From NCBI GenBank assembly GCA_963822175.1, contig CAWGGJ010000008.1, positions 640,388-704,387 of the forward strand: a stretch of 64,000 nt of DNA, given 5' to 3'. The stretch comes from an uncultured Chloroflexia bacterium (GTDB lineage Bacteria > Chloroflexota > Anaerolineae > Anaerolineales > UBA4823). A program made the translations under genes and the position numbers. How positions within the stretch are numbered: position 1 is the stretch's first letter; each line of letters opens with the position of its first letter. The notes below the pieces were generated by a model. It did no database searches. It had not been told where the DNA came from and worked only from the letters and a program-made list of their open reading frames with translations. Positions 166-63,690 of the stretch are shown here, piece after piece.

Positions 166-588
166 ATGTATCACACAATTATTTTAGTTGGGAATCTAGG
201 TCGCGATCCCGAAATGCGTTACACCCCCAGCGGCCAGGCGGTTACGAATTTCAGCGTAGCAACGAACCGCCAGTATACCGGTAGCGATGGACAAGTAGTG
301 AAAGAAACTATTTGGTTTCGCATATCTACCTGGGGAAAGAATGCAGAGAACTGCAATCAATATCTCAAGCGAGGAAGTAAAGTTTTGGTCGAAGGCAGGC
401 TTGTTCCGGATGCAAGCACAGGTGGTCCACGCATTTGGAACCGCCAGGACGGTACACCGAGCGCTTCGTTCGAGATTAATGCCCAGATGGTTCGCTTCCT
501 TTCAACACGAGGTGAAGACGACGGCGGTGGAATGCCACCCGGCGAAGGTCCAAATCAAGCCGAGGATCCTGACGGCATACCATTCTAA
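166..588 (+). CDS. ssb: Single-stranded DNA-binding protein
   Basis: The 140-aa ORF has an OB-fold N-terminus (ILVGNLGRDPEMRYTPSG...NFSVATN), a Gly/Pro-rich linker and the acidic C-terminal tip DPDGIPF typical of bacterial SSB. A GGAGGA SD lies upstream. Confidence 0.92.
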   Translation: MYHTIILVGNLGRDPEMRYTPSGQAVTNFSVATNRQYTGSDGQVVKETIWFRISTWGKNAENCNQYLKRGSKVLVEGRLVPDASTGGPRIWNRQDGTPSASFEINAQMVRFLSTRGEDDGGGMPPGEGPNQAEDPDGIPF

Positions 589-600
589 AATCACTCCCCA

Positions 601-630
601 AAAAGGTGCAGAGAACTTTTCTGCACCTTT
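601..630 (+). terminator. Hairpin after ssb (possible intrinsic terminator)
   Basis: GGTGCAGA (605-612) pairs with TCTGCACC (620-627) around a 7-nt loop, flanked by AAAA and TTT. The U-tract is short. Confidence 0.5.
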
Positions 631-657
631 ATAGCTTCTGTATAAGGAATAACTATT

Positions 658-987
658 ATGTCCACACCTGCTCAGAACCGTCCAGCAGCACCACCCCCAC
701 CTACGTTGGAGGTTCCGTCTGATCTGAAGACGGATTATGCCAATGTTGTTCGCATTGCACATTCTCCTTCTGAATTGGTCTTTGATTTTGCTCATCTCCT
801 TCCCGGTGTCACACCTGCAAAGGTATGTACCAGGGTTGTTATGTCTCCATTAGGAGCAAAATTATTACAAAGAGCCCTGGCAGAAAACTTAGGTCGTTAT
901 GAAAAAGCGTTTGGTGAGATAAAAATCCCAGGTGAGAATTCATTGGCAGATTTCCTGTTTCGTCCGCCAACACCTCCAAAAGAGTAG
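658..987 (+). CDS. DUF3467 family protein
   Basis: The 109-aa ORF carries the motif YANVVRIAHSPSELVFDF characteristic of DUF3467. It lies 5 nt upstream of the next gene. Confidence 0.75.
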   Translation: MSTPAQNRPAAPPPPTLEVPSDLKTDYANVVRIAHSPSELVFDFAHLLPGVTPAKVCTRVVMSPLGAKLLQRALAENLGRYEKAFGEIKIPGENSLADFLFRPPTPPKE

Positions 988-3843: not shown

Positions 3844-5588
3844 ATGCTGAGTGAATTACATATCGAGAATTTTGCCATCATTAATCACCTGGAGCTTGTT
3901 TTAATCCAGGTCTGAATATATTTACCGGTGAGACGGGGGCGGGCAAGTCAATCATCATCGATGCTGTAGAAACCATCCTGGGGAGCCGGGCAGATGCGAC
4001 CATGGTAAGGGTAGGGGCTGAGCACGCCCTGGTCGAAGCCAGCTTTAAAATACCAGATGAGATGAGGCATCCCATTCACCAAATCCTTGAAAGGGAAGGA
4101 CTCCTGGATGATTCGGATCAGCTCACCCTGGGGCGAGAAATTCGTAGAAATGGCCGCAGCTTTGCCCGTGTGAACGGGCGAAATGTCAACATTCACGTAT
4201 TAATTGAGTTAAGCGAATTTCTTGTGGATGTTCATGGTCAATCGGAACATTTATCCTTGTTGCATGTCAGGCAGCACCTGGGATTGCTGGATAGCTATGC
4301 ACACGTAGAGTTTGAATTAGCAGAATATCAGGCGGCTTATCACAAGCTAATTCAGGTGCGCAACCAGCTTGCGCAGCTGCGGGTTGCTGAACAGGATGCC
4401 AGCCGACAGATTGATATCCTTAAGTACCAGATCAACGAAATTGAGGCAGCCCATCTACAAGAAGCGGAAGAGGAAGAGCTGCGTGCAGAACGGACCCGCC
4501 TTGCGAACGCAGAAGGGATTGCTCTGTTAATCCAGGAGGCGATCCAGATATTAGATGAGGGTACATCCGAGACTCCATCCATTACAGACCTGATGGGACA
4601 AGTCACCAGCCTTTTAAATAACCTGATCAGATTAGATTCAATGCAAGAGAAATTAAGTGAGCGTTCACAGGGTTCTCTGGATGAGTTAACCGATCTTGTA
4701 GCTACCTTGCGCGATTACTTGGAAACGATAGAGTTTAACCCTGAGCGTTTAGATATTGTTGAAGATCGTATCAATTTAATTCAAAACCTAAAAAGAAAAT
4801 ACGGTGAAAGTATTCCCAAGGTACTTCAGTTTGCAGAACAAGCCCGGAGACAACTCGATACAATTACACATGTTTCTGATCGGATTGGCGAGCTTGAAGT
4901 TGAGGAAACTTCATTAATAGTAAAGGTTGGTGAATTAGGGGTAGTTTTATCTGACAAGCGGCATGCTGCTGCGGATCGTATGGAAAAAGAGGTTGAATCG
5001 GAATTGGCACACCTTAGTATGTCAGGAGCTCAGTTCAAGGTGGATTTTTCTGATCATCCATCAGAGGCTGGTGTCTTATTACAAGATGGGAGAAAGGTGG
5101 CATTTGATGCGGCAGGATTGGAACACATTGAGTTTTTAGTCGCACCGAACCCAGGAGAGGGATTAAAACCATTGGTGAAGATCGCCTCTGGTGGAGAAAC
5201 ATCCCGCCTGATGATGGCCATAAAAAATGTCCTGGCTCAGGCAGACCGAATTCCAACCTTGATTTTCGATGAGATTGATCAGGGAATAGGTGGTCGGGTG
5301 GGCATGGTCGTAGGTCGAAAGTTATGGGAGTTAGCCCGGCAACATCAGGTCCTATGTGTGACTCATCTCGCCCAACTGGCGGCCTTTGGTGAGCAACATT
5401 GGCGGGTTGAAAAACAGGTCAAAGATGGCAGGACAGAAACCCATGTGACAGCCCTGGCTGCAGACGATCGAATGATCGAGCTTGCCCAAATGATGGGGGA
5501 GGTGAGTGATGGAACTCGGCAATCTGCACAGGAACTGCTTAAGTCGGTGAACCAGATGCTCAAACAAAGACCCGTTCATGACGATTAA
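3844..5588 (+). pseudogene. recN: DNA repair protein RecN, reading frame broken near the 5' end
   Basis: ATG 3844 encodes MLSELHIENFAIINHLELV and then stops at 3913. In the neighbouring frame from 3903 the sequence reads NPGLNIFTGETGAGKSIIIDAVE (Walker A) and continues into the 528-aa ORF ending at 5588, which carries the SMC-like signature ASGGETSRLMMA and Walker B LIFDEID. One extra T in the T4 run at 3899-3902 would restore a single ORF. Confidence 0.85.
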
Positions 5589-5642: not shown

Positions 5643-8552
5643 ATGCCCACAGTTCCGCAAACCATAAAATTTCGCAATCAACGAAGATTTAAAGAAAAAC
5701 GCAATCCATGGTTCAAGATTGGTCTGAGTTTTGGAATCGTTATCAGTATTATGCTGGCGGTAATTGGTCTGATTGGGTCCTGGTATTACGCCAACCTCAC
5801 CCACGATCTTCCATCGGTGGAAGTCGTTCCATCACTATTGGAACCACCGGATGGAACGATGCTCCAACCCACACGTATTTATGACAGGTTACATGAGAAT
5901 ATTCTCCTGACACTTGAAAACCCGGCTGTAGCAGGCAGGCAGTACCTGTATGTTGATGAAGACACTCAGGCAGGAAAGGATCAATTTCCTAAAAACCTCA
6001 TTGACGCCACAATTGCCGTTAATGAACCTGATTTTTGGACTAGCCCAGGCTTTTCCTTGTCTGGATTGTCGGAAGGCACACATCCGACGATAGCCCAACG
6101 GCTAATTTCCGACCTGGTTTTGGACGGTGAACCACCTTCGTTACAGCGAAACATTCGTGAACGTTTGCTGGCTGCCCAGATCACCGCTCAATTTGGGAGG
6201 CCGAAAATCCTTGAATGGTACCTGAATAGCGTTCAATATGGGAATCTTATCTATGGTGCAGATGCAGCTGCACGTGCATATTATGGAAAATCTGCATCTG
6301 AGATCAATCTATCTGAAGCTTCCATGCTTACAGCTATTAGCGAGATGCCAGCGATAAACCCATTATTTGGTTCACAAATATTACAGGATCAGCAGGAAAT
6401 AGTGATTGATTCGATGTTAGCCAACAGGATGATTAATCCCGGCGAGGCTCAAAAAGCCCTCTTCAAGAATATAAAATTCCGGGAGCAAATAGAAACTCAG
6501 TCCCGTGCTCCTGCATTTACTAATTTAGTCTTGATGCAGCTTAACCCGATAATACCCCTGGATAGAATCCGGAGAGGTGGTTATGAGATTGTAACCAGCC
6601 TGGATTATGACTTACAAATGCAAGCTGCCTGTGCCTCGCAAGCTCAGGTGGATCGGTTGAAAGGTTATGGTGAGCAATTAACCAAAGTCGATGGCAGCAC
6701 ATGTGAAGCAGCGCAATTACTCCCAACCTTACAATTAAACGGAAACGGTCCAATACAAGATGTTAAAGTTAATCTGGTTATTCAAGATCCACAATCAGGT
6801 CAGATTTTAGCTCTGGTAGGAAATGAAAGCTCTGAGATGGTTCCAGCGTATCCAGAAAAACATACTGCTGGAACGATCTTGTCTCCTTTTTTGTATCTTA
6901 CTGCATTTACACGTGGTATGAGTCCCGCAACACTGTTATGGGATATCCCTCAAAATAGAGAAAATGAGCTGACGGTGCTAAACCAGGCTGATACTAGTGA
7001 AATGCAGATTAGCTCTTACCATGGTCCGGTCAGTTTAAGGACGGCATTCGCCAACGACTATTTTGCTGCCGCTACAACTGTCTTGCAGCAAGTGGGAATT
7101 AATAATGTCTGGCTGACCGAAAAACGGTTTGGGATCGATACACCTGAACTGGACACAGGTTCAAAAGCAACATTGAGCGATCTATACTCTCAGTCAATTT
7201 CATTGACCAATGGCGCGCAGGCTTATGGAGTACTGGCAAATCAAGGCATCTTGTCAGGTCAGCCCAATAATATCTCTGGAGCTGAAGATAATGGCTTAAG
7301 CTCAACAAGCATCCTAAAGGTGATGGGAGTTGATGGAAGGATTTGGTTGGACTGGTCGATTCCACAATCTCGATCAATCATTAATCCTCAGTTAGCTTAC
7401 CTGGTTACCAACGTCCTGAGCGATGACTATGCTCGCTGGCGGAGCCTTGGTCATCCTAACTCCTTGGAAATTGGTCGACCGGCAGCAGCCAAGTTAGGGT
7501 TGACCGAAGGTGGCAATGAGGCCTGGGTGCTTGGGTATATCCCACAACTGGTTGTTGGGGTTTGGATGGGCGGAGAAAAAGATGATACTGGTGGCCTTTC
7601 TGCAGACATCCCTGCTGGACTCTGGCATGCCATTATGCAGTATTCATCCAAGCATATAGCAGTTCAGGATTTTGCTGTGCCAGAAGGAATCAGCTTAATT
7701 CAGGTTTGTGATCCTTCAGGATTACTTGTGTCTGACCTGTGCCCATCGATCGCTCAGGAGGTGTTTTTAACCGGAAATGAACCGACACAGGTGGATAACC
7801 TTTACCAGAAATACTTTATAAATCGTGAATCTGAGGCTTTAGCAACGATATTTACTCCTTCAGATATGTTAGCAGAAAAGGTGTACATGGTAGTGCCGCC
7901 GCAGGCAGAATCATGGGCAGAAGAAGCGGGCTTTCCTACTCCACCCGATACCTACGATGTGATCTATGCAGTCCAGGAACCATCCCCTCAGGTCAATATC
8001 ACCGACCCAGGGATGTTCGATCAGGTATCGGGTTTTGTAGATATTCTCGGCACTGCAGCAGGGAGTGATTTTTCCTACTATCGATTACAGGTTGGAAAAG
8101 GACTAAACCCTCAGCAATGGATCCAGATCGGTGAAGACGTTGAAAAACCGGTGCACGACGCAATCCTTGGAACCTGGGATAGCAGAGGTTTGGAAGGTTT
8201 ATACGTGGTGCAATTGCTGGTCGTGTATCAGGATCAACGTGTAGACCGGGATATCGTGCAGGTAACCATTGATAACTCGGTACCCCAGGTTAGAATCGTA
8301 ACTCCTACTGATGGCGAAGAAATTAAGTTTGACCAGGGGGATTCGATCATGATGCAGGTTGAGGCGACTGATAACCTCGTATTGGAGCGGGTTGAATTTT
8401 ATTTGGACGGATCTCTGGAATCAACGCTATTGGTAGAGCCTTTTATAATCCTGTGGCCATCGACACCAGGTGAGCATACATTGATTGTAAATGCTTACGA
8501 TTTGGCAGGTAACGCCAATGAAGCAGAAGTCTCATTTTCAGTGTTCAAATAA
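5643..8552 (+). CDS. Class-A penicillin-binding-protein-like protein (glycosyltransferase, degenerate transpeptidase, C-terminal Ig-like domains)
   Basis: The 969-aa ORF has an N-terminal TM anchor and a GT51-like region (NEPDFWTSPGF, RNIRERLLAAQ, ILEWYLNSVQYG). The PBP transpeptidase-like region has altered motifs: TILS for SxxK and KLG for KTG. Confidence 0.8.
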   Translation: MPTVPQTIKFRNQRRFKEKRNPWFKIGLSFGIVISIMLAVIGLIGSWYYANLTHDLPSVEVVPSLLEPPDGTMLQPTRIYDRLHENILLTLENPAVAGRQYLYVDEDTQAGKDQFPKNLIDATIAVNEPDFWTSPGFSLSGLSEGTHPTIAQRLISDLVLDGEPPSLQRNIRERLLAAQITAQFGRPKILEWYLNSVQYGNLIYGADAAARAYYGKSASEINLSEASMLTAISEMPAINPLFGSQILQDQQEIVIDSMLANRMINPGEAQKALFKNIKFREQIETQSRAPAFTNLVLMQLNPIIPLDRIRRGGYEIVTSLDYDLQMQAACASQAQVDRLKGYGEQLTKVDGSTCEAAQLLPTLQLNGNGPIQDVKVNLVIQDPQSGQILALVGNESSEMVPAYPEKHTAGTILSPFLYLTAFTRGMSPATLLWDIPQNRENELTVLNQADTSEMQISSYHGPVSLRTAFANDYFAAATTVLQQVGINNVWLTEKRFGIDTPELDTGSKATLSDLYSQSISLTNGAQAYGVLANQGILSGQPNNISGAEDNGLSSTSILKVMGVDGRIWLDWSIPQSRSIINPQLAYLVTNVLSDDYARWRSLGHPNSLEIGRPAAAKLGLTEGGNEAWVLGYIPQLVVGVWMGGEKDDTGGLSADIPAGLWHAIMQYSSKHIAVQDFAVPEGISLIQVCDPSGLLVSDLCPSIAQEVFLTGNEPTQVDNLYQKYFINRESEALATIFTPSDMLAEKVYMVVPPQAESWAEEAGFPTPPDTYDVIYAVQEPSPQVNITDPGMFDQVSGFVDILGTAAGSDFSYYRLQVGKGLNPQQWIQIGEDVEKPVHDAILGTWDSRGLEGLYVVQLLVVYQDQRVDRDIVQVTIDNSVPQVRIVTPTDGEEIKFDQGDSIMMQVEATDNLVLERVEFYLDGSLESTLLVEPFIILWPSTPGEHTLIVNAYDLAGNANEAEVSFSVFK

Positions 8553-15921: not shown

Positions 15922-18720
15922 CTATTCTTCCAATACTGATAAATCTCCCCAGTTATGACCGAAACGGGCTTCTGTTTTCAAGGGGATAACTAAATTATAG
16001 GCATTTTCCATCATTGTGCGAACAATTTTAACAGTCTTTTTTACTTCATCGGACGGGCATTCAAGAACAAGCTCATCGTGCACCTGAAGGAGAATATGAC
16101 CACCTAGGCCTGCATCCTTCAATCCTGCTGCCACCCGAAGCATTGCCAATTTCATGATATCAGCTGCTGTGCCCTGGATTGGTGCATTGATCGCCTCACG
16201 TTCTTCGCGTGCCCTTGTAGCAGGATTACCACCTGATTTTAGTCCAGGGAAATATCGACGACGTCCAAGTAAAGTCTCAACATAACCTTGCCTTGCAGCC
16301 ATCCGGCGCATATTATCCAAATAGGCTTTAACACCTGGGAATTGCTCAAAGTAGGCTTCAACAAAATCCTCCGCTTCGGCCAGGGTTAGCTCACTGGTCC
16401 GGGTGAGGCCGAATGCGCTCATCCCATACAACAGGCCAAAGTTGATTGCTTTAGCATTACGACGCTGCTCCTTGGTGACCTTATCCAGGGTCGTTCCCAG
16501 GATGGCAGCAGCCGTGGCAGTGTGAATATCCTGGTTAGCACGGAATGCTGCCAGCATCGCCTCATCACCTGACATGTGAGCAGCAATGCGCAACTCGACC
16601 TGTGAATAGTCAACCGATATCAAGGAGAAACCTTCAGCAGCTATGAAGGCTTGGCGTACCTGGCGACCCAATTCGGTGCGGATGGGTATGTTCTGCAGGT
16701 TAGGATCTGACGAGGCAATTCGCCCTGTGACGCTTCCGGCCTGGTTATAGGATGTATGAACGCGGCCAGTTACAGGATTCACCTGATCTGGTAGTGCGTC
16801 CAAATAGGTTGACTTGAGCTTAGAAAGCTCGCGATATTCAAGAAGCACATCCACAACAGGATGTTTACCCTTCATAGATTCAAGCACCTCCGCAGAGGTT
16901 GAATAATGACCTGAATCAGTTCGTCTGGTGCCATCGGGCGGACTGAGTTTTAGGCGGTTGAATAATGCATCGGATAATTGTTGCGTTGAATTAAGGTTAA
17001 ATCGTTCACCGATATAATCAAACACTTGTGTTTCAATATCACTCAAGCGACTTTGAAGCTCAGCGGACATTTTTTTAAGGAATTTTATATCCAAGGTAAT
17101 GCCGGTCATTTCCATGTCAGCAAGGACCGGGATAAGCGGCATCTCAAGCTGTTCAAAAAGCGACATGGCAGAGTTTGCTGTCAACTCCGCCTTGAGCCCT
17201 GGTAGTAATCTAATGACCGCAATTGCATCCTTGGCCGCATATGGTGCAGCTTTTTCAATTGGAACTTGCGCCATGGTGATCTGTTTCTTGCCAGTCCCAA
17301 TCAAGCTGCTGATTTCGTTCATGCGAAAATCGAGGCGAACCCAGGCTAAATTTTTTAATCCCAAATTATGCGATGTAGGGTTGGTCAACCATTCAGCAAC
17401 CATTGTATCGAAGGTGAGGGGAGATGGACGCAATCCATTTCTGGCCAGCAGGACAAAATCGTATTTGAGGTTATGACCGATTTTTGGGATATTGATATTT
17501 GTTAACGGGTCTCGTAATGCATCAATAACCTGTTGGATCGGTAACTGGCGATTATTTTCCCCTTCATGCCCAACAGGGATATACCACCCTTCGTTGGCAT
17601 CCATTGCCAGGGAAATTCCAACCAGATCTGCCCGCATCTGGTCAGTGGAGGTTGTTTCAGTATCAAAGGAAATGATCTTTGCGGATTGCATTCGCTGAAC
17701 TAGGCTGTCAAGTGCTTGTCCGTCATCTACGACATGAACGATGATTTCTCCTTCTTGTTCAGGTGCAGCACTAAGTGGCGGTGTGGAATGAGGGAACAAG
17801 GAAAGTTGTTCATCTTTTGTGGCTACAGATTTTCCAAAAGCTGGGTATAAGGCAGTCAGACGTCCCATTAAAGATCGAAATTCTAGCTCCCTAAACAACG
17901 CTTCAACGCGAGCAGGATCGAAATGTTCGGTCCGCGCCATATCCAGGTCCAGCTTGATTTTGAGATCAGTGATAATGGTCGCCAGTTTTTGACTTAGGTA
18001 TGCATATTCTTTACTAGCTTGGAGTTTTTTTCGAGTGGTTTCTGAGATATCATCCAGATGATTATAAATTTGGTCCAAATTCCCATAGGTAAGTAACAAA
18101 GATACAGCGGTTTTTTCACCAATCCCAACGACTCCGGGAATGTTATCTGATTTATCTCCCACCAGGGCTTTATAATCCACGACCTGGTCAGGTTTCACGC
18201 CGAGTAAATCAACGACATCTTTGGTAAAATAATCCTTTGCATCGGCAAGGGTTTTCCCAGGCAGATTAACCAGGATACGATCGTTCACAAGTTGTAACAA
18301 GTCCCTGTCGCCAGTGATGATTTTAATACCAAATCCTTCTTCAGCCAGGTGATGTGAAAGGCTTCCAAGGACATCATCCGCTTCATAGCCTTCCACCTCA
18401 AGTCGGGGGATATTAAATGCATCCACAATCTGGCGAATACGTTCCATTTGTGGTCGGAGGTCTTCCGGCATTTTTGCCCGTGTGGCTTTATATTCTGGGA
18501 ACAAAGCATCCCGAAACGTTTTCCCGGTATCAAAAGTGACTGCCAGATAATCAGGATGATCCTGTTCAAGCAGGCGGAGCAAAATGGAGGTAAAACCAAA
18601 TACGCCAGCAGTAGGTTCACCAGCATGGGTGGTGAAGGCGTTTGAAGAACCCCTTGTTAGAGCAAAGTATGCCCGGTATGCCAGGGCATGTCCGTCGAGT
18701 AAGTAAATAATAGGAGGCAT
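15922..18720 (-). CDS. polA: DNA polymerase I
   Basis: The 932-aa ORF has a 5'-3' exonuclease N-terminus (LLDGHALAYRAYFA), a 3'-5' exo region (SFDTETT) and polymerase motifs (DYSQVELRI, RRNAKAINFGLLYG, QVHDELV). Confidence 0.97.
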   Translation of the reverse strand: MPPIIYLLDGHALAYRAYFALTRGSSNAFTTHAGEPTAGVFGFTSILLRLLEQDHPDYLAVTFDTGKTFRDALFPEYKATRAKMPEDLRPQMERIRQIVDAFNIPRLEVEGYEADDVLGSLSHHLAEEGFGIKIITGDRDLLQLVNDRILVNLPGKTLADAKDYFTKDVVDLLGVKPDQVVDYKALVGDKSDNIPGVVGIGEKTAVSLLLTYGNLDQIYNHLDDISETTRKKLQASKEYAYLSQKLATIITDLKIKLDLDMARTEHFDPARVEALFRELEFRSLMGRLTALYPAFGKSVATKDEQLSLFPHSTPPLSAAPEQEGEIIVHVVDDGQALDSLVQRMQSAKIISFDTETTSTDQMRADLVGISLAMDANEGWYIPVGHEGENNRQLPIQQVIDALRDPLTNINIPKIGHNLKYDFVLLARNGLRPSPLTFDTMVAEWLTNPTSHNLGLKNLAWVRLDFRMNEISSLIGTGKKQITMAQVPIEKAAPYAAKDAIAVIRLLPGLKAELTANSAMSLFEQLEMPLIPVLADMEMTGITLDIKFLKKMSAELQSRLSDIETQVFDYIGERFNLNSTQQLSDALFNRLKLSPPDGTRRTDSGHYSTSAEVLESMKGKHPVVDVLLEYRELSKLKSTYLDALPDQVNPVTGRVHTSYNQAGSVTGRIASSDPNLQNIPIRTELGRQVRQAFIAAEGFSLISVDYSQVELRIAAHMSGDEAMLAAFRANQDIHTATAAAILGTTLDKVTKEQRRNAKAINFGLLYGMSAFGLTRTSELTLAEAEDFVEAYFEQFPGVKAYLDNMRRMAARQGYVETLLGRRRYFPGLKSGGNPATRAREEREAINAPIQGTAADIMKLAMLRVAAGLKDAGLGGHILLQVHDELVLECPSDEVKKTVKIVRTMMENAYNLVIPLKTEARFGHNWGDLSVLEE

Positions 18721-18726
18721 GCTAAT

Positions 18727-20442
18727 TTATTGGTATAAAGATGAATTATACACACCTTGATGCTCACGAATTTCATGAATGTATCTATTAACAAGGTGTG
18801 GTTGTATGGTTTGCTTGCCGCCAGAGATGAAGAAGCCGGGAGCCCAGAAATCTTCTGACGGGTTTTCTTCTGCCAGGGCTGGGAATTGGGAAAAGATATA
18901 CCGAGAGGTTTTCTGACGCAAGGTACGAACGAGTAAGGCTGGTGATGTTGTCAGTGGTGCTCCAGCAATCCATTGGATATGATCGGAGTGAATGGACAGA
19001 TGTTCCAGTCGCCAGCCAAAGGCTAAACAGAGCTGGCCCATCCATTTAAATAAATAAGACGCCAGGTTGCTATTTACAAGGTGCTGTGGCATACGGGGGA
19101 TCAGCAGGCAAGAATAGGTGATATATTGTCCAACAGATAATGGCGCTATCGTATTTTCTGATTCTAAATCGGTAATCGATCGAGTTTCATCAACTACAAT
19201 ATCAGGTGTTTTACTTGCTGTCTGGGAGACAAATTCAGAAATCTCATGATAATCAGAGATTTCACCTTCGATAGATTGAGTTGAATATCCTGCATTGGTC
19301 TCAATGTCGGAATCATTGGGTTTTGTAGCCGGTGAAGGTACCGCACTAGTTGTTTGTTGCTGTAAATCAGCTTGATAGGATGATGGAAATGGAAGAACAG
19401 AACTACCAGCAACAGTTTCAGTCTGAACTGATGGTAATTCGGTTGTTGCAGGCATGGGCTGATTTATTGAGGAATCGATAGTAGAGACAGGTTGAACTTC
19501 TTCAACAGTTTTCTTTATTGGCAGATTGCCACGATCGATTTCAGTTGTCCGGTACTCCAACAAAGAATTCTCTGGTGGTGATAATAAGCCGTGGGTAAGG
19601 TTTACAGTTTGTCGCCTGACTACGCTGAATGGGGTAGTTTGGTCAAACACTAGGGCGAGCATCATTTCCCTGGATAAAGAAACAACATACAAAAAATACC
19701 TGGTTTTAATAAATTCCAGTTGGATGAATCGAACAATATCACCATTTCCCACCCTTTGTTGGCTCTGGGAGATTTGCTTTTGTAGATTTTGGGAGGAAAT
19801 TTTACTAAAGCTATTGATCAGATCAACCAATTCCTGGATCGCAGCTGGGGGAAGCATTCCTGAATGGGTATAGAGCTGTTTTCTGCGCAAGACAAGGACT
19901 TCAAGAGCATCTGTTTTATCTGAAAGGTTGGTAAGCCTTTGATTCAGGTATGAAAATTCGTCCAATCTGGAATACGAGGTGAGGTTGCTTACTGGTACAA
20001 TCGTTGAAGCATGTTTTTGTGGTTGGACTGGGTCAGGATTGTGCAATTGTGAAGGAGGTGTTCCAGGTCTACCAATTTTTGGGGACGCATGCTGAAGTGA
20101 TGCAAATAATTGTGCTGAAGTAAAGGATCTTGGTAAGAATTCGTTTGGTTTTATGTTTATTATTTGAGACCGTGGGATACCATGCTCTGCAAGAATCAGG
20201 ATTAGGTGCAACCTTGGTGATAAATCCTTAAGTTCATTAATCACCTCAGGATCTTGAAAATCCGGATGTTGGGAATCAAGGATGCAGGCATCAACAGATG
20301 ATATTCGGGAATATTCCAGTGCTTCCAAAATGCCTTGGAATGGAATAGTTAAGTACCCACCGGCTTTATCCAATTCTTGTTGGATTCTCAAGACCATTTC
20401 AGGGGATGGAACAATTACCAATACGGTTGCTTCACCCTTCAT
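18727..20442 (-). CDS. Receiver-like N-terminal domain fused to an IS200/IS605 TnpA-like (HUH/Y1) C-terminal domain
   Basis: The N-terminus has a CheY-like layout (VLVIVPS...DACILDS...LILIL). A long S/T/Q/P-rich linker follows. The C-terminal ~120 aa parallels IS200-type TnpA block by block: YSC..., DHIQWI (for DHIHIL), RQKTSRYIFSQFPAL, FWAPGFFISGG, VNRYIHEIREHQ. Confidence 0.7.
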   Translation of the reverse strand: MKGEATVLVIVPSPEMVLRIQQELDKAGGYLTIPFQGILEALEYSRISSVDACILDSQHPDFQDPEVINELKDLSPRLHLILILAEHGIPRSQIINIKPNEFLPRSFTSAQLFASLQHASPKIGRPGTPPSQLHNPDPVQPQKHASTIVPVSNLTSYSRLDEFSYLNQRLTNLSDKTDALEVLVLRRKQLYTHSGMLPPAAIQELVDLINSFSKISSQNLQKQISQSQQRVGNGDIVRFIQLEFIKTRYFLYVVSLSREMMLALVFDQTTPFSVVRRQTVNLTHGLLSPPENSLLEYRTTEIDRGNLPIKKTVEEVQPVSTIDSSINQPMPATTELPSVQTETVAGSSVLPFPSSYQADLQQQTTSAVPSPATKPNDSDIETNAGYSTQSIEGEISDYHEISEFVSQTASKTPDIVVDETRSITDLESENTIAPLSVGQYITYSCLLIPRMPQHLVNSNLASYLFKWMGQLCLAFGWRLEHLSIHSDHIQWIAGAPLTTSPALLVRTLRQKTSRYIFSQFPALAEENPSEDFWAPGFFISGGKQTIQPHLVNRYIHEIREHQGVYNSSLYQ

Positions 20443-25454: not shown

Positions 25455-25880
25455 TTAATTTACATCTTTTATTGTATATTTATGCTCAATTTTACAGGCT
25501 TTGCTTAGCATCGCCTGTGCGGGACAGTATTTTGTTGCGGATAACTCAATTGATCGTTCAACTGCAGCTGGATCAATGTTACGCCCTTCTACGATATATT
25601 CAAGGAATATGTGCGTAAAGACTTTTGGAAACTCATCTGCTCGCTCTGCCCTTACCTGAACCTCGAAAGCAGTCACATCCTGTCTCTTTTTCTTCAGGAT
25701 GGAGATCGTGTCCATGCCTGTACATCCAGCCAAACCAATCGCAATCAATTCCATTGGTCTAAATCCAGTATTTTCACCTCCGGCCGATGCTTCACCATCC
25801 AATGGCAAGGTGAAATCACTTTCGCCGACCCCGGTAAAGGATAATTTATCATTCCAAATGACTTTTACAACCATAATCAT
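25455..25880 (-). CDS. OsmC/Ohr family peroxiredoxin-like protein
   Basis: The 141-aa ORF has the two conserved Cys contexts GLAGCTGMD and ATKYCPAQ. It overlaps the upstream gene by 4 nt. Confidence 0.85.
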   Translation of the reverse strand: MIMVVKVIWNDKLSFTGVGESDFTLPLDGEASAGGENTGFRPMELIAIGLAGCTGMDTISILKKKRQDVTAFEVQVRAERADEFPKVFTHIFLEYIVEGRNIDPAAVERSIELSATKYCPAQAMLSKACKIEHKYTIKDVN

Positions 25881-26446
25881 TGCTCCAGAAGTGGGGTCAC
25901 ATATTTTTCTAACATTTCCCGGTTAATTGGGCCTGTCCATGCAAGAATAACATTTCCATTGCGATCTATAACATACGAGCTTGGCAAATTCTCGTTTTTA
26001 AATGAAATCAAAGATTTCGTATTTGGATCCAACAAAACTGGGAAGGTTAATTCGTATTCCTCTGCAAATTTTACTACCTCTTCTTTGGGATCTCCTGCTT
26101 CAATCCCGAGTAACATAAATCCTTGTTCCGAATGCTCCTTATAGTACCTGGATAAGGTTGGCATTTCTGCTTTGCACGGAGGACACCACGTTGCCCAGTT
26201 GTTAATTAATATAATTTGATCTCGAAAATCTGAGATTGTTACTTGCTCTCCGTTGATATTATTCAGTGTCAGATCCGGGGCAGGATAATTTACTTCTGAT
26301 GGAATGACGGTGTAATCAGATGATATTCCATCAACTGAAATTAATTTGGCTGCGACCAATCCTAAAACGATCAGACCAACGCCAATTAATATCAGTGGGA
26401 TATAATAACTGAACCCTTTTTTCATTTTTCCTTTTTGCATAACCAT
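25877..26446 (-). CDS. Membrane-anchored TlpA/ResA-like thiol:disulfide oxidoreductase
   Basis: It has an N-terminal TM anchor and a thioredoxin fold with WATWCPPCKAEMP. Confidence 0.85.
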   Translation of the reverse strand: MVMQKGKMKKGFSYYIPLILIGVGLIVLGLVAAKLISVDGISSDYTVIPSEVNYPAPDLTLNNINGEQVTISDFRDQIILINNWATWCPPCKAEMPTLSRYYKEHSEQGFMLLGIEAGDPKEEVVKFAEEYELTFPVLLDPNTKSLISFKNENLPSSYVIDRNGNVILAWTGPINREMLEKYVTPLLEQ

Positions 26447-26458
26447 ATTACTTGAAAC

Positions 26459-27130
26459 CTACAAATTAGCTACCCGGCTTATTTCCTGAAGAAGATCATC
26501 TTCGGGTATTGCACCCACTACAACCCCTTTACCATTATTTATCGTAGTCTGAGGCACACCGCTGACATTATAATGCATTGAAAGTTCGTAAAACTCATTT
26601 GCAGAGACCATTTCAGCTGTAATATTGGGATTTTCCATTGCCAATTGATGGGCAAGCACCACGGCTTGCGGACAGTATGGTCAGGTTGGTGTTGCAAATA
26701 CTTTTAGATTTATGGGGCTTTTCAAATTGCGGAGTGTATTTCGCGTCTCTGATTTTAACCCCGAATCACGCCGTGAGACTAAAAGGATTGCCTGAATTAG
26801 CGAGCTAAATTCATAACCTGAAGGTTGACCAGCAAAACGTATCCCATAATCAATAACTTCATCTGGTTCATGTCCGGCAATTACAATGCTGGGGGCAAGA
26901 TCAACGTCATATTGTTGTGCCGTTTGAGGATCCTCATCAATACTGTATGCTTTAAGGAAAATTATTTTTGATAAATTGGAGAGTTCTTCCAATAATATTT
27001 TGGTATCTTCACAGGTATCACAGAAATCAGGTTTTGAAAATAAAATAATTTCTACTGGATGCACCAATTGGGCATCAAATATTTCCATGATTTGTTTTTC
27101 TAAATCTTCGTTAAGCACCTTGTCAGGCAT
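26459..27130 (-). CDS. Two-domain thioredoxin-fold protein disulfide oxidoreductase (glutaredoxin-like PDO) with an in-frame TGA at the CPYC position (candidate selenocysteine)
   Basis: ORFs 26681..27130 and 26459..26662 are in the same frame, separated by one TGA (26681-26683). Read-through gives ...KVFATPT-[TGA]-PYCPQAVVLAHQLAMENP...NVSGVPQTTINN. The N-terminal half has CDTC. Confidence 0.6.
26652..26669 (-). promoter_or_regulatory. SECIS-like hairpin 11 nt downstream of the in-frame UGA
   Basis: The mRNA reads UGA-CCAUACUGUCC-GCAAGC-CGUGGU-GCUUGC: a perfect 6-bp stem and a 6-nt loop containing GGU. Confidence 0.45.
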
Positions 27131-27307: not shown

Positions 27308-29059
27308 ATGGATAAACTTTCGAAAGCTAACAACAGGCCATTGATATTTATCCTGGGATTATTAATGTTGGGGGTTTTGCTGCTTATTCCGTTATCTGTG
27401 TCCTATGCCGAAGGTATTGTCAATCAAGGGATGATGCAAGGATTTGGCGATCCGAATGATGGCTCCACAATAAGACATTCATTCCTTCTTACTGATACAG
27501 TAACAGCAACTCCGACAATAACTCAAACTCTCACCCAGACACCCACGGATCTGCCAACCTTAACCGCCTCCCCAACCGAAACAGTATCTCAAACTATAAC
27601 AGCATCCCCAACCTTGACTGCCACTCCAACTGCAACAACAGCCCCAACCGAGACTGGGACATCTACACCAATTACTACGGGAACAGAAACTGCGACAAGT
27701 ACGCCCACCATCAAGCCAACACTAACACCAACGGTAACAGGTACTCAGCCTACAAAAACTGCGACCCCAACTGCAACCGGTACTTTGTCAGTTGTTCCTT
27801 CATTAAGAGTGCAGGTTCAGCCAACTGAAGCAAGAATTAATGAAAATTTCACCTTTGCAATTGAAGTGGGTAATATTGGCACTGGAGTTACCACCAACAA
27901 CGTCGTGATAGATGCCTTCCCGACTTATATTGATGTCCTGACTGTGACAACAGGTCGAGGGACAATCACCAAACTAGCTCACTCATTTGTGGTCACCATT
28001 GGAGATATCTCTCCGAATGAGAAGATCACCATTGTTGCAGGCGTAAAAGTAAACGCAACCCTTACCCGCACTGAAACGATAGTGAATGTTGTGACATTGA
28101 CTTACGATATTGGCAAGTCTATGACTGCGAGCGTTAATTACAAGGTGATTTACCAGACTTTGCCACCCACGGGTGAGTTGCCTTTGAATTGGCGAGATGG
28201 GAAAGTATACTCGTCCAGCATCGTGCCAGCTGTATTGCTGCTTGTTTTAGGCAGTATCCTACTATTGATAGGGATCTGGTTAAAGGTAACTGGTAAGAAG
28301 AACACCTTTTGGATGATTACAATTGGAAGTTTATTTGTGATCATTGGATTTGTAATCGGGACATCAGCCTTGGGGATACTGCAATCGTTTCAACAAGCAA
28401 ATCAAGACGAGTTTACTCCCACGGAAAGTGGCAGCCTTGCTCTAGCTCAACCGGAAGAACCAGCGGAGACTAATATACCTAGACTTCCTGCTTCAGCGTA
28501 CTCAACACCGGAAGCAGTACCAATTGTCACCTTACCTAATTATCCCATTCCAACACCTGTGATCACGATAACTCCAAAGCCAGGGGAATCAGGACCGGAT
28601 ACCAGCCCGATAGTGCGGATAGCAATCCCTGGCATTCTGCTAGATACAGAAGTTAAATATGTTCCTTATGATGGCGTCAGCTGGTTGATATCTGGCTTAC
28701 GGGAGGAGGTTGCATGGATGGGCAATACCTCCTGGCCTGGATTAGGTGGAAATACCGGTCTTGCTGGTCATGTGACTGTTGCTGGAATGGGAGATGGACC
28801 GTTTCGTCACCTGGACCAGTTAACCGCTGGTGAGGTTGTTATCCTCTACACAGAGAACAATGCTTATACCTATACGGTTAGGGAGAGTCGTATTACTGAT
28901 GATGGAGATATGTCGGTAACGCTGGCAACAAATAACCCACAAATTACGCTGATCACCTGTGTGAATTGGGATCAGGAAAGTCATACATACCTAAACAGAT
29001 TGGTCGTTTTTGCTGATTTGGTTCGAACAGATCCGATCAGGATGGGCACGGCGCCATAA
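27308..29059 (+). CDS. Fusion of an LPPTG-sorted DUF11-like surface protein with a sortase domain
   Basis: In order it contains a signal peptide, a Thr/Pro-rich linker, a DUF11-like repeat domain, LPPTG (28160-28174), a TM helix, KVTGKKN, a second TM helix, a linker, and a sortase core (LAGH..., TLITC with Cys codon 28958-28960, NRLVV). Confidence 0.8.
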   Translation: MDKLSKANNRPLIFILGLLMLGVLLLIPLSVSYAEGIVNQGMMQGFGDPNDGSTIRHSFLLTDTVTATPTITQTLTQTPTDLPTLTASPTETVSQTITASPTLTATPTATTAPTETGTSTPITTGTETATSTPTIKPTLTPTVTGTQPTKTATPTATGTLSVVPSLRVQVQPTEARINENFTFAIEVGNIGTGVTTNNVVIDAFPTYIDVLTVTTGRGTITKLAHSFVVTIGDISPNEKITIVAGVKVNATLTRTETIVNVVTLTYDIGKSMTASVNYKVIYQTLPPTGELPLNWRDGKVYSSSIVPAVLLLVLGSILLLIGIWLKVTGKKNTFWMITIGSLFVIIGFVIGTSALGILQSFQQANQDEFTPTESGSLALAQPEEPAETNIPRLPASAYSTPEAVPIVTLPNYPIPTPVITITPKPGESGPDTSPIVRIAIPGILLDTEVKYVPYDGVSWLISGLREEVAWMGNTSWPGLGGNTGLAGHVTVAGMGDGPFRHLDQLTAGEVVILYTENNAYTYTVRESRITDDGDMSVTLATNNPQITLITCVNWDQESHTYLNRLVVFADLVRTDPIRMGTAP

Positions 29060-29080: not shown

Positions 29081-29109
29081 GCACTGGATTCACTATCCAG
29101 TGCTTTTTT
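29081..29109. terminator. Bidirectional intrinsic terminator
   Basis: The stem GCACTGGA (29081-29088) / TCCAGTGC (29096-29103) is flanked by AAAA upstream and TTTTTT (29104-29109) downstream. It lies between convergent genes. Confidence 0.7.
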
Positions 29110-30704
29110 AATCCATCACCGAGAATACCCATTCACCAGCAACCATCGTAGCAGTTGGTTTGATGTTTTTCAGCTCATCGGGTGGACAATTATATGGATC
29201 TTTGTTCAGTATTACTAAATCTGCCAGGAAACCAGGGGCAAGCTTTCCCAGACAGTCTTCCATGCATGCTGCATATGCAGGTCCAGCAGTAAAAGCAAGG
29301 ATCGCTTCTGCGATGCTCAGGCGTTGTTCTGGGTACCAACCCTGTTCTGAGGGTGCGCCATCGGTGCGACGACGAGTGACAGCAGCATGTAGGCCTAAAA
29401 ACGGATCGGGGGATTCGACGGGTGCGTCAGACCCAAATACCAGTGAACTACCATGCGTTAGGAGCTCTCGCCAGGCATAAGCAAATTTAGATCGCTTTCC
29501 CCAAAATCGATCTGCCATTAACATATCTGAAGTGGCGTGGATGGGCTGCATAGAGGCGATGATATTCAGGTTTGAGATCCGTTCGATATCATCAGGATGG
29601 ATGACCTGGACATGCTCAATGCGGTGACGAAGCTGGTGTTTCGATCGAGACGATATGAGGTCTTCATATTTTCTCAACTGCGCATAGGCGTTCAAAACTT
29701 CATGATTGGCGCGATCTCCGATGGCATGAACGGCAAGGCTGATGCCATTGGACGCTGCCTGGCGACCATACTCAAACAATTCCTCAGCATCCAACGTCAA
29801 GATTCCGCGATTCTGAGGATCATCCTCATAGGGCTGAAGCATGGCAGCGGTGCGTGGACCAAGTGCGCCATCGGCAAACAATTTTAACGCTCCAACACGC
29901 AGCATATCATCACCAAAACCAGAACGTAATCCCAAGTCAATGGCATCAGGTAAATTCGCCAGGGGAATGCTCTTAGTGATGCGGAGTTTTAATTTTTTTT
30001 CTGCATGGATAACTTGGAGAGCAGAAAAACATCGCCTTTGGTCAAAATCATGGACTCCAGTAAGCCCCATTTTCCATAGAATGGGTTGGGCTGATTGAAT
30101 GGAATTAACTACCTGGACCAAACTGGGTTCTGGTATGGCCCTATTGATGATTTCCATTGCTGATTCGAATACGATACCATCGGGTTCGCCATTGCGATGT
30201 CCGTCCAATGCGTCCACCAGGAGGGTCGGGTGTATTGTGATCAATTCCCGCTAAATTTAAAGCTTGTGTATTCACCCAGCCACAGTGAAGAGATTTGTGT
30301 GTAAGGTAAATTGGATTTTGTGGAGCAATTTCATCAAGCTGATTTGCTGACCCATATCCTTCTGCCCAACGATTTTGATTCCATCCATGACCCAATACCC
30401 AATCACCCATCGGTGTTTGCATTGTTCGAATTGCCACCCTTTGGATGCATTCCCCCTGCGTGACGGTCTCGCAATCAACTCGTTGCATACTGAGGGCATA
30501 ACTTTCCAGGTGCATATGAGCGTCAGTTAGACCTGGGATGATTGATTGACCGTGAAGGTTTAAAATATTTCTGGTGGAGAAAGAATCTTTGATTTCTGCA
30601 TCTGATCCAACAGCCAATACGCGATCATTGTCGATCGCAATTGCCGTTGCAATGGGCTGTGCTGGATTTTGAGTAAGGATATTGGCGTTGAAAATAACAA
30701 GCAT
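29108..30704 (-). pseudogene. Amidohydrolase-3 family metal-dependent hydrolase (COG1574-like), frame broken
   Basis: The N-terminal ORF 30141..30704 (PGLTDAHMHLE) and C-terminal ORF 29108..30244 (HAIGD, HRIEHVQV, GSDAPVE) overlap in different frames. The junction is near ...TPDPPGGRI / DGHRNGEPDG, around 30190-30215. Confidence 0.8.
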
Positions 30705-55526: not shown

Positions 55527-56670
55527 TCAGGGGCACTCGTTAGCTACATGCTCTTCAAATGATTCAGCAAACAGATGATATCCCGATCCATCACAGGCAG
55601 AACGAAAATAGAAGTAGGGTGTTTGGGCTGGAAATGCAACAGCCTCAAGCGCAGATTGCCCTGGGTTGGAAATTGGTCCAGGGGGAAGTCCGTTATATAT
55701 ATATGAATTATAGGGAGAGTCCACCTTCAAATCCTGCAGGGTGAGTGGATTTGTCCACCAGGTGTGTTGTTCCTGGTTATACCCCAAGGCATACTGGACG
55801 GTTGGATCAGATGCCAATGTACTACCTGCATCTAATCGATTATAGAAAACAGATGCAATTTGTGGCATCTCGTCATCCTGCATAGCTTCACGCTCCACAA
55901 TGGAAGCCAGTGTAACCGCCTGGCATAGATTCAAGCCTTGTGAGCTATAGCCATTCCGCATCTCCGAGGTGACATTGCTTTCAAAATCCATCAAAATCCG
56001 TGAAAGTACCTCACTCATCGTGGTTTCACGAAGTAATACGTAGCTCGACGGATATAAAAAACCTTCCAGGTTATTTTCAGCCAGGCAACCAGAAAAGCTG
56101 TATCCTTCAGGTTGTTGATTCACTGCCTGCAGAAATTCTTCGGGGGTTATAGTTAACCCTGTGCTGGGTAATGAGCTGGCAATTTCCTCACTACGCCATC
56201 CCGGTAATATCGTTAAAAGTTACATAGGGTGAATTGGAGATTTGCATTTCTTTTACGATGTCAATAACTGACATTGCTGGGCTAAATCGGTATTCACGAG
56301 CTTGTAGCTGTGTATCCAGACCTGAATACTGCAGGTAATTACGAAACAAACCTGGATCCGATATTAAACCTGCCTTATAAAGCTTCTCGATAATGGATGG
56401 CACAGATTCTCCCTGGTCAATGGTAATGCTTACGTCAGAACCGTTGGAATTGATCGGCTGAGTAAGGTCTTTGTATCGAAGGACAAGCAATGTGGAGAGA
56501 TACAAGCGCTCGGTAGCACTTAACTGAGGGGTGGGGGTTCCAATGAGTTGTTCTGCTCGCTTGCTAATAATCTGCGGAACCAAAATGATAGAAACGAACA
56601 AAATACAAACAAAGAGGATGAACAAAAGGAAGCAGGTTACAACCCGTGAGCGAGGATGATGCTGAGCCAT
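55527..56670 (-). pseudogene. mltG: Endolytic murein transglycosylase MltG (YceG-like), frame broken
   Basis: The N-terminal ORF 56191..56670 (TM anchor, LysM-like part) stops at ...PYVTFNDITGMA*. The next frame continues LTILPGWRSEEIASSL... into 55527..56123 (ASIVEREA, YNSY...GLPPGPISNPG). Removing one base from the A4 run at 56215-56218 (plus strand) restores one ORF. Confidence 0.85.
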
Positions 56671-56674
56671 ATGA

Positions 56675-57088
56675 TTATTTCACGTTTTCATCCAGATAGG
56701 ATTGCAGGATGATAGCGGCTGCCAGGTCATCCAGGTGACCATGCCGTTTTTTACGAGTTGTACTCAGCGCTATTCGAGCGCTCCGGGCTTGTTGTGTGCT
56801 AAAACTCTCATCCCAAAATAACACTTGAAGCTCACTCTGTTGGTGGATGGCTTCAGCCAGATGATCTGCTTGCTTGCTTTGAAGTGTGGATGCTCCATCT
56901 TCGTCCAGGGATTTTCCGATAATAATGATTCCTACCTGGTTTTGATGCGCAAGATCTGCTATCGCTGCCGCATCCAACCGGCGGGAAATATGCTTTAACA
57001 CCACCAGAGGGCTGGCAATCGTGCCTGTCGGATCGCTAATGGCGATCCCAATGTTCTTTTCACCCGGATCTACAGCTAATATTCTCAC
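56675..57088 (-). CDS. ruvX: Putative pre-16S rRNA nuclease / Holliday-junction-resolvase-like RuvX (YqgF)
   Basis: It has VRILAVDPGEKNIGIAISD. I chose the GTG start at 57088 because it overlaps the upstream stop (GTGA). The ORF track extends to 57145. Confidence 0.85.
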   Translation of the reverse strand: MRILAVDPGEKNIGIAISDPTGTIASPLVVLKHISRRLDAAAIADLAHQNQVGIIIIGKSLDEDGASTLQSKQADHLAEAIHQQSELQVLFWDESFSTQQARSARIALSTTRKKRHGHLDDLAAAIILQSYLDENVK

Positions 57089-62098: not shown

Positions 62099-63690
62099 AT
62101 GGATCCTATGAAATTACCATCCATTCAAGAGAATAAAAAAAGTTACCTTTACTTTACCGTGTTTTGTGCAGGGATGACCAGCCTGGCGATCGAGTTTGGT
62201 GCTGCACGGTTATTGGGTAATACCTTTGGGACAAGCAACCTGGTTTGGGCAAGCATCATTGGGCTGATCTTGATTTACTTGACTTGTGGGTATTTTATCG
62301 GTGGGTACTGGGCAGATAGGTCACCAAAACTTAAGACCATGTATGGGATCCTGGCCTGTGGTGCTTTTGCTGCCGGATTGGTGCCTTTTATTGCCCGCCC
62401 GGTGTTACGCTTAGCCGCAGATGCATTTGACCAGCTTAAAGTGGGTATCCTGTTTGGATCGTTCACGGCAGTGTTGGTATTGTTCGTTATCCCGGTGACG
62501 TTATTGGGGATGATTTCCCCCTTCGCTATCCGGCTGGCCATCGTTGACTCACGCCAGGCAGGGCGAATCTCGGGGCAAATTTATGCAGTATCGACTTTGG
62601 GTTCTTTCATCGGTACTTTTTTGCCGGTCTTAGTGTTGATACCCCTTGTAGGGACGACGATGACATTCCTGATTTTTAGTTTGTTCCTTACCATGGTCGC
62701 ACTGGTTGGTATGTATAAAGCTACTGGCTGGCGAAATACGATTAAATGGATATGGATGCCGATAATTTTATGTTTACTGGGAGTTTTATGGGGGAGTGGA
62801 CCGATCAAGAAAACTGCAGGCGAGATCTATGAGAGAGAATCGTCATATAACTATATCCAGGTGATCGAGAAAGACGGTTATCGCTATTTAAGATTGAATG
62901 AGGGGCAGGGGATTCATTCCATTTGGAACTCAACTGACCTGAATTATGGTGGTCCATGGCAGGAATTCCTGGTTGCCCCTTTTTTAATCAGCCACCTTAT
63001 AATATCAGCCAGGTGAAAAATATGGCAATCATAGGGCTGGCGGCAGGGACGGTTGCCCGGCAAGCAACGGAAGTCTTCGGGAATGTTCCCATCGATGGTT
63101 ATGAAATCGATCCTGCCATCATTGAAGTTGGCCAGAAATACTTCGATATGAATTTACCGAATTTAAATGCCATTGCACAAGATGGTCGGGTAGGCTTGGA
63201 ACAGAGTGAGAAAACCTACTCTATCATCGGTGTGGATGCATATCGACCTCCATATATTCCACCACATCTGACCACCAGAGAATTTTTCCAGGCAGCGAAA
63301 GACCATTTAACAGCTGATGGGGTTTTGGTTGTTAATGTAGGCAGGTCACCAACAGATCGGGCATTAGTCGACCAGATAGCAAGCACAATTCAATCAGTTT
63401 TCCCATCTGTATATATTGTGGATGTACCGGGTTCTTTTAATTCCATGATCTATGCCACACTCCAGCCAACTGATATTCAGAATCTAAATGTGAATCTGGA
63501 GCTTCTAAAAGCAGAAGCAGGTACGGCTGAACTGCTTATGCAATCATTGCAGGTGGCAAAGGATAATCTTCAACCCACGCCCCCCAAGAGCGTGGTATAT
63601 ACTGACGACTGGTCACCCATTGAATGGGTGACAAACAGCATGATCCTGAGCTATGTTATGTTTGGGAATCTGGAAGAGATTGGACATTAA
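62099..63690 (+). pseudogene. Fused polytopic-membrane / spermidine-synthase-like (aminopropyltransferase fold) protein, frame broken
   Basis: The N-terminal ORF 62099..63016 (about 7 TM helices, then YNYIQV...YLRLNEG) and C-terminal ORF 62956..63690 (IIGLAAGT, GYEIDP, IGVDAY methyltransferase-fold motifs) sit in adjacent frames. The junction is at the C4T6 run 62976-62985. Confidence 0.8.

Follow-up and report, generated by a model that had tools for sequence, protein, structure and literature searches.

We have analyzed a 64-kb stretch of DNA, here called the window, from an uncultured Anaerolineae-like member of the Chloroflexota. It is an origin-proximal housekeeping region, containing rnpA-yidC-jag, parAB, rho, polA, mutL, lon and alaS. 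On the minus strand, two open reading frames lie in one frame, 26681..27130 (149 aa) and 26459..26662 (67 aa, with a GTG start). An earlier note on this DNA had taken them as the halves of one gene interrupted by a candidate selenocysteine (Sec) codon, and sequence and translation bear out its description of the locus. The gap between the frames consists of a TGA codon (26683..26681) and six sense codons, CCA TAC TGT CCG CAA GCC, and reading through the TGA gives a product of 149 + 1 + 73 = 223 residues. A CDTC motif is found at residues 37-40 (27022..27011, minus strand). The TGA stands in the context KVFATPT-TGA-PYCPQAVVLAHQLA, i.e., at the first Cys of a C-terminal CPYC motif, and in the read-through translation the surroundings of codon 150 are KVFATPT-[TGA]-PYCPQAVVLAHQ. 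The UGA is followed by 11 nt (CCAUACUGUCC) and then by GCAAGC-CGUGGU-GCUUGC, a perfect stem of 6 bp closed by a loop of 6 nt. The features of the locus are as follows, where PDO stands for protein disulfide oxidoreductase.

27011..27022, minus strand: CDTC motif of the N-terminal domain, the second of the CxxC sites that characterize PDO proteins, aligning with the CQYC region of the P. furiosus protein (PfPDO)
26681..26683, minus strand: in-frame TGA, codon 150, very probably read as Sec; first position of a UPYC motif (26672..26683)
26652..26669, minus strand: bSECIS-like hairpin, separated by 11 nt from the UGA; 17 nt lie between UGA and loop, and the loop starts C-G-U
26459..27130, minus strand: predicted PDO-type selenoprotein gene, 223 codons and a TAG stop; two thioredoxin (Trx) folds, 'glutaredoxin-like'
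25877..26446, minus strand: membrane-anchored ResA/TlpA-like thiol-disulfide oxidoreductase with a WCPPC motif, downstream of the PDO gene
25455..25880, minus strand: OsmC-family peroxidase-like protein, the third gene of the cluster (OsmC, E = 9.2e-33)

The read-through protein, with Cys put at the TGA, was compared with the NCBIfam models. It matches TIGR02187.2, 'PDO_seleno_TRX' (protein disulfide oxidoreductase), at equivalog level, scoring 249.6 bits (cutoff 185) in an alignment that spans positions 2-208 of the 209-position profile. Pfam matches on the C-terminal half are to Thioredoxin_3 (residues 141-217), Glutaredoxin and Thioredoxin. The likeness to PDOs that had been suggested from the letters alone is upheld by full-length homology to the P. 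furiosus enzyme 1A8L (E = 2.5e-38, residues 11-217). More generally, the hyperthermophile PDOs (P. furiosus 1A8L, P. horikoshii 1J08, Aquifex aeolicus 2AYT/2YWM and Aeropyrum pernix 2HLS) are homologous with E = 2.5e-38 to 1e-30 and align over residues ~5-219. They have two Trx folds, with CxxC in the N-terminal and CPYC in the C-terminal fold, and alignment with 1A8L, 2AYT, 1J08 and 2HLS places two tandem Trx folds, the C-terminal one bearing the redox motif, within ~220 aa of the window protein. However, they have Cys where the window has UGA, the N-terminal motif of PfPDO is CQYC and not CDTC, and the window host is a bacterium of 45% GC. Both in 1A8L and in Cys-type homologs, the residue matched to the TGA is the leading Cys of the C-terminal CPYC, an arrangement of the UxxC kind; CPYC is present in all four of the Cys-type homologs inspected (P0003-P0006).

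The N-terminal domain of AhpF (1HYU, 1ZYN, 4O5Q), which passes electrons to a peroxidase, is a homologous double-Trx module (E = 1e-9 to 7e-11), and the AhpF model TIGR03140 is matched with E = 1.8e-21. However, that match scores 76.3 bits against a cutoff of 502.9, from which we conclude that the window protein is not AhpF; with 223 aa as against ~520 aa, it is also without the fused TrxR-like flavoprotein domain.

Among the best 120 homologs, 117 are continuous proteins with lengths of 216-263 aa. The two halves are thus normally fused, as the earlier note had supposed, and the two frames of the window constitute one gene and not two. The three exceptions (P0001, P0002 and P0061) come from the three closest relatives (L003, L002 and L001, respectively), and all three have TGA, not Cys, at the same codon. 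P0002, from an ENA assembly of MEGAHIT style, has 93% amino acid identity to the window protein, and its product was called as 149 aa. P0061, on a 73-kb contig of an ENA long-contig assembly, has 82% identity and was also called as 149 aa. P0001, from a JGI assembly and with 80% identity, reads TPTWPYCP, in which the codon underlying the Trp is TGA. In the DNA of all three relatives the TGA is followed by the same hairpin as in the window. Over 20.5 kb the window is collinear with L001, and the nucleotide identity of 87% marks the two as distinct organisms.

The pattern of substitution indicates that the region beyond the TGA is translated. In comparisons among the window, L001 and L003, third codon positions account for 23/38, 22/38 and 25/35 of the differences in the 73 codons 3′ of the TGA, and for 46/74 of those in the codons 5′ of it, while the reading frame and the position of the stop are unchanged. 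Since the third-position pattern is alike on both sides of the TGA and the frame is kept, we conclude that the downstream part is translated in frame with the upstream part. Over this downstream region as a whole, 45% of third positions vary among these three sequences; the span of the hairpin, from +10 to +32, contains no variable nucleotide.

This hairpin had been likened to the SECIS of E. coli fdhF, and the comparison holds for its geometry. In both cases a stem-loop lies immediately 3′ of the UGA. Published bSECIS criteria (as in bSECISearch) call for a loop of 3-9 nt, a stem of 4-16 bp, a G among the first two loop nucleotides, a distance of 16-37 nt between UGA and loop, and a minimum free energy (MFE) of −7.5 kcal/mol or lower. 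The window hairpin, with a loop of 6 nt, a stem of 6 bp, G then U at loop positions 2-3, a spacer of 11 nt and a loop distance of 17, lies within all of these limits except the last, energy, on which it is borderline: −7.3 kcal/mol in isolation against the threshold of −7.5; in context, energies of −8.4 kcal/mol (hairpin-only centroid) and −10.4 kcal/mol (MFE over 43 nt) were obtained. It differs from the fdhF SECIS in lacking a bulged U, and its SelB site is putative. We know of no primary-sequence similarity between the two elements.

Taken alone, the window hairpin is statistically unremarkable and only suggestive. In isolation z = −1.97, with 11 of 200 shuffles equally good, and in contexts of 43-61 nt z is ~ −0.7; measured against 2000 synonymous ways of encoding the peptide, P is ~0.06. 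The case against chance comes from comparison: ~200 homologs among the matches listed have a TGA conserved at the same codon.

These homologs were found by scanning GTDB genomes and JGI metagenomes with the pattern CCNACNTGACCNTAYTGYCC, each scan yielding at least 120 matches. By blastp against the read-through protein, ~200 of the 240 matches listed are true homologs spanning the TGA, with 29-64% identity. Among the matches listed, TGA-bearing homologs occur in more than 10 phyla. The carriers listed within the Chloroflexota belong to the Anaerolineae, Dehalococcoidia, Thermomicrobia and Ktedonobacterales, and others among the matches listed to the Acidobacteriota, Methylomirabilota, Rokuibacteriota, Dormiibacterota, Ignavibacteria, Desulfobacterota and Bacillota. 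The gene is also carried by cultured bacteria, namely Sulfobacillus thermotolerans Kr1, Alicyclobacillus tolerans, A. mengziensis and Anaeromyxobacter oryzae.

With this set the RNA structure could be examined across the family. Each of the 196 distinct downstream sequences among the matches listed has a stem of 4 bp or more; closure falls at +17 in 97 of them, and there is a G among the first two loop nucleotides in 166. The register of the hairpin differs by clade, from the 6-nt loop of the window to a 5-nt loop (CCGGGC-CGUGA-GCCUGG) and a shifted form (GGCC-AGGUU-GGCC). Pairing was tested on 62 sequences, chosen solely for protein identity of at least ~45%. In the register of the window 84.7% of cells are paired; sliding the 3′ partner lowers this to 23-50%. 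That the position of the hairpin is kept, with compensatory changes, is borne out in this set by one pair that occurs as G-C, A-U or C-G (19 cells); with the register fixed, two-sided compensation is confined to this one pair of the six.

This compensation couples codon 5 to the third base of Leu codon 9, and the two co-vary as stem partners in the combinations CAA-CTT (18), CGA-CTC (31) and CCA-CTG (3). The change in codon 5 alters the amino acid (Gln, Arg and Pro, respectively), and its Leu partner changes synonymously. Selection at the level of the protein gives no account of this coupling. The family set has a mean MFE of −13.12 kcal/mol, compared with −10.45 ± 0.19 kcal/mol for synonymous recodings generated with the codon usage of the respective gene, and none of 100 recoded sets was as low. 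RNAalifold applied to the 62-sequence alignment returned a meaningless structure of four pairs, a consequence of clade-specific hairpin registers in a gap-free codon alignment. Rfam gave no match, either for the whole window at gathering thresholds or for 26400-26900 at E ≤ 10; it apparently has no usable bacterial SECIS model, and the lack of a match carries little weight.

Six Cys-type relatives (L244-L249) served as a control, in which the hairpin was expected to be missing. All six pairs of the hairpin are formed in two of them, five pairs in one and three pairs in the other three, where the loss results mainly from the Arg codon CGC in place of CGA. The two with intact hairpins are L249 and L244, the latter having TGT followed by GCAAGC-CGUGUU-GCUUGC. 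The proposed tie between hairpin and Sec form thus stands in part: the hairpin is clearly missing in three of the six Cys-type relatives, yet intact in two, and in this small sample it is no clean discriminator between Sec and Cys forms. The hairpins retained in Cys-type genes may be relics of recent switches from Sec to Cys, a reading that six sequences leave ambiguous.

We also looked for the machinery of Sec insertion. No selA, selB, selD or tRNA-Sec was found within the 64-kb window, and ARAGORN detected no tRNA-Sec in the window or in ~250 loci of homologs. In 1.5 Mb of sequence flanking the relatives' loci, a selD probe found no match, and a selA probe matched in four loci (L042, L078, L155 and L137), each time ~4 kb upstream of the Sec-type PDO gene. 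In the first three of these selA was verified with NCBIfam TIGR00474, at 516-548 bits against a cutoff of 268. The presence of selA beside a Sec-type PDO gene in three Anaerolineae loci indicates that Anaerolineae carrying the gene do have Sec biosynthesis. The Chloroflexi were already named among Sec-using phyla in the 2006 census.

Could the UGA be decoded as something other than Sec? Insertion of a standard amino acid (Trp, Cys or Gly), whether through near-cognate suppression or an alternative code, would agree with the W given by the JGI pipeline at the orthologous codon of P0001, and with a window in which Sec machinery was not found. We regard it as highly unlikely. TGA terminates 17 of the 44 long open reading frames in the window and is no general sense codon, so a code in which TGA has sense is excluded and the code is standard; genetic codes 4 and 25 were rejected on this usage of stop codons. 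A Trp or Gly residue where CPYC has its nucleophilic Cys would leave the site inactive. Moreover, the position of the codon, the UxxC motif and the hairpin downstream fit the catalogued Sec family, and selA is present in related genomes that bear the Sec form.

There is, in our estimate, a very slight chance that the UGA is a true stop, giving a separate N-terminal protein of 149 residues and a 67-residue fragment that starts from the GTG at 26662. The ENA gene callers give exactly the 149-residue product for P0002 and P0061, and because RF2 competes at any Sec codon, some truncated product is to be expected. However, a fragment started at the GTG would lack the entire UPYC active site and the first β-strand of its fold, and the single-protein form of 117 of the best 120 homologs stands against such a division. 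The six codons between TGA and GTG are kept as PYCPQA, which would be inexplicable if they were untranslated.

The probability that the TGA marks a pseudogene created by a nonsense mutation, or stems from faulty base calling or assembly of a gene that normally encodes Cys, is negligible. In favor of such a reading, TGT becomes TGA by one substitution, the Cys-type L244 has local sequence that is otherwise near-identical, and other genes of the window are broken (a frameshift interrupts an amidohydrolase near 30193-30198, and YceG is divided at ~56124-56190). But those breaks are private to single assemblies: the amidohydrolase is intact in L001, and polA, fragmented in L001, is whole in the window. 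The TGA is common to four independent assemblies of distinct organisms and to the ~200 distant homologs among the matches listed, which excludes error and pseudogenization for practical purposes, and the 73 codons past it remain in frame with changes that are mostly at third positions.

The conclusion that emerges is that this is very probably a single PDO gene in which the UGA at codon 150 is decoded as Sec by virtue of the bSECIS-like hairpin downstream, with a product that would act in a redox relay. Sec insertion at UGA-150 is strongly supported; for this organism itself we infer it from sequence. The product would be a cytoplasmic oxidoreductase of the PDO or AhpF-N-terminal-domain type, with two Trx folds and a C-terminal U-P-Y-C site. 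During translation the hairpin 11 nt past the UGA would function as the bacterial SECIS. By analogy with the E. coli fdhF paradigm, SelB carrying GTP and Sec-tRNA(Sec) would bind the apical loop and deliver Sec in competition with RF2. The selenolate is then likely to be the attacking nucleophile of a UxxC selenenylsulfide/dithiol center, as in Sec-thioredoxin (Treponema denticola) and Sec-glutaredoxin (Clostridium). These proteins share the Trx fold and have Sec for the N-terminal nucleophilic Cys of CxxC; however, they are single-domain proteins of ~100 aa from other Pfam families and are experimentally supported, whereas the PDO type is predicted.

A family of this kind is already known. 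Reviews credit the UxxC selenoprotein family to Kryukov and Gladyshev (2004), with ABB15282.1 of Carboxydothermus hydrogenoformans as its representative, and class the PDO-type family as 'predicted with high confidence'; no experimental incorporation of Se was found for it in those reviews. The 2006 census held two bacterial members, from C. hydrogenoformans and Symbiobacterium thermophilum, compared with at least ~200 among the matches listed here, and a 2026 review places the family also in Asgard archaea. The window protein shares with this catalogued family of PDO/AhpF-N-terminal-like Sec proteins its NCBIfam model, a UxxC motif with Sec first and a two-domain architecture of ~220 aa; its host, however, is outside those listed. 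As the gene agrees with the family in every feature open to testing, it is a mis-called new member, from an uncultured Anaerolineae-like Chloroflexota. The family having been catalogued since 2004, the call made for the window is right and the gene itself ordinary, even if gene callers routinely cut it short. It does entail a correction of the annotation, since the ENA callers end the gene at codon 149, and so lose the active-site half of the protein, and the JGI call turns the UGA into Trp. The TGA gene also marks the organism as a probable user of selenocysteine.

What goes modestly beyond the literature examined is the breadth of the Sec form, the possible relic hairpins in Cys forms, and a conserved context of PDO, redoxin and OsmC genes. 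The first of these, based on two scans with at least 120 matches each and more than 10 phyla, suggests that Sec-type PDO is far commoner in Chloroflexota, Acidobacteriota, Methylomirabilota and acidophilic Bacillota than early censuses showed. Neither the breadth of the family nor its thiol/peroxide defense cluster alters the current understanding of Sec decoding.

The context is that of the two genes downstream of the PDO gene. The redoxin encoded by 25877..26446 matches the ResA subfamily with E = 4.8e-33, and since the score is under the cutoff we claim similarity only. The OsmC gene, 25455..25880, overlaps the stop of the redoxin gene by 4 nt. The order PDO, redoxin, OsmC is kept in the Sec-type L001 and in the Cys-type L244 and L246-L249. 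The N-terminal domain of AhpF transfers electrons to AhpC, and archaeal PDO transfers them to a peroxiredoxin. From this analogy and the conserved order of PDO, TlpA/ResA-like redoxin and OsmC genes, the most likely role of the protein would be to relay reducing equivalents to a module that defends against peroxide and disulfide stress, with the neighboring gene products as its putative partners. We advance more tentatively, as a proposal we think rather doubtful, that Sec PDO, far from being confined to a few thermophilic anaerobes, may be among the most widespread of environmental Trx-fold selenoproteins, with repeated flips between Sec and Cys, and that in Anaerolineae it may head a peroxide-defense module of PDO, TlpA-like and OsmC genes. 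If true, this would constitute a selenium-dependent pathway of peroxide defense not yet described, in which an OsmC-type peroxidase has Sec PDO as its dedicated reductant. Directly upstream of the PDO gene, several relatives carry a gene for an ECF sigma factor, sometimes together with a zf-HC2 anti-sigma factor.

The predicted bSECIS-like stem-loop that follows the UGA codon is found in at least three registers among the loci with a Sec-type PDO gene (for example L137, L181, L217 and L061), when the codons are aligned without gaps. Positions are nucleotides downstream of the UGA:

stem closed at +17, loop of 6 nt
stem closed at +17, loop of 5 nt
stem closed at about +21/22, sequence GGCC-AGGUU-GGCC

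This variation within a gap-free codon alignment indicates that the putative SECIS has evidently been rebuilt inside one coding sequence in different clades. Two Cys-type relatives also carry a complete SECIS-like hairpin, located immediately 3′ of the Cys codon:

L244 492..1163, PDO gene with a TGT codon, hairpin GCAAGC-CGUGUU-GCUUGC
L249 1501..2166, PDO gene, hairpin GCGAGC-CGUGGU-GCUUGC

An intact hairpin directly after a Cys codon suggests a recent Sec-to-Cys conversion in both loci, in which the RNA element would not yet have decayed.

At four loci with a Sec-type PDO gene, selA (TIGR00474) lies about 4 kb upstream on the same strand as that gene:

L042 4343..5782, minus strand
L078 5436..6797, minus strand
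L155 4510..5925, plus strand
L137 about 4386..5096, minus strand

The intervening genes encode a PepQ-like peptidase and TsaD, together with an ECF sigma factor in L042 and L078, and three or four Anaerolineae loci share the order from selA to the PDO gene. The flanks examined at the four loci showed no selB, selD or tRNA-Sec.

In many relatives an ECF sigma factor gene, often accompanied by a zf-HC2 anti-sigma factor, lies directly upstream of the cluster of PDO, redoxin and OsmC-family genes:

L247 440..703
L248 330..1183
L249 186..1038
L042 1417..2013
L078 2550..3149

This recurrent adjacency hints that a stress sigma factor controls the cluster. The corresponding place in the window is occupied instead by a divergent sortase-domain gene (27308..29059).

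The selenoprotein is mishandled in public gene calls of the three nearest relatives. The ENA calls for L001 (10001..10450) and L002 (127..576) both end at codon 149, while the JGI call for L003 (Ga0566174_0525117, 383..916) translates the TGA as Trp (TPTWPYCP), as though genetic code 4 applied.

Several other genes are, or may be, disrupted in the window:

29108..30704, minus strand, amidohydrolase, ORFs of 378 and 187 aa that overlap
55527..56670, minus strand, YceG/MltG-like, two ORFs with a break around 56124-56190
62099..63690, plus strand, ORF of 305 aa overlapping a spermidine-synthase-like one of 244 aa

The amidohydrolase gene is split by a frameshift near 30193-30198 and its L001 ortholog (6583..8010) is whole, at 475 aa; polA is unbroken in the window (15922..18720) and lies in five pieces in L001. 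Each of these two genes is broken in one assembly only, and the breaks look like indel errors private to an assembly and not like pseudogenes that both share. The YceG/MltG-like ORFs of 159 and 198 aa match profile positions 1-74 and 103-272, respectively. The third pair may be another frameshift; a T-run (CCCCTTTTTT) lies close to the overlap, at about 62975.

A 502-aa ORF (57085..58593, minus strand) that weakly resembles Baseplate_J (E = 1e-7) sits between alaS and ruvX, overlapping the ruvX ORF start; no further phage genes lie near it in the window. Adjoining polA is a gene whose product, of about 500-570 aa, carries an IS200-like Y1 transposase domain at its C-terminus (window 18727..20442, minus strand; L001 16934..18418). 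It occupies the syntenic position in both, and resembles a resident gene, perhaps a domesticated one, more than a mobile insertion.
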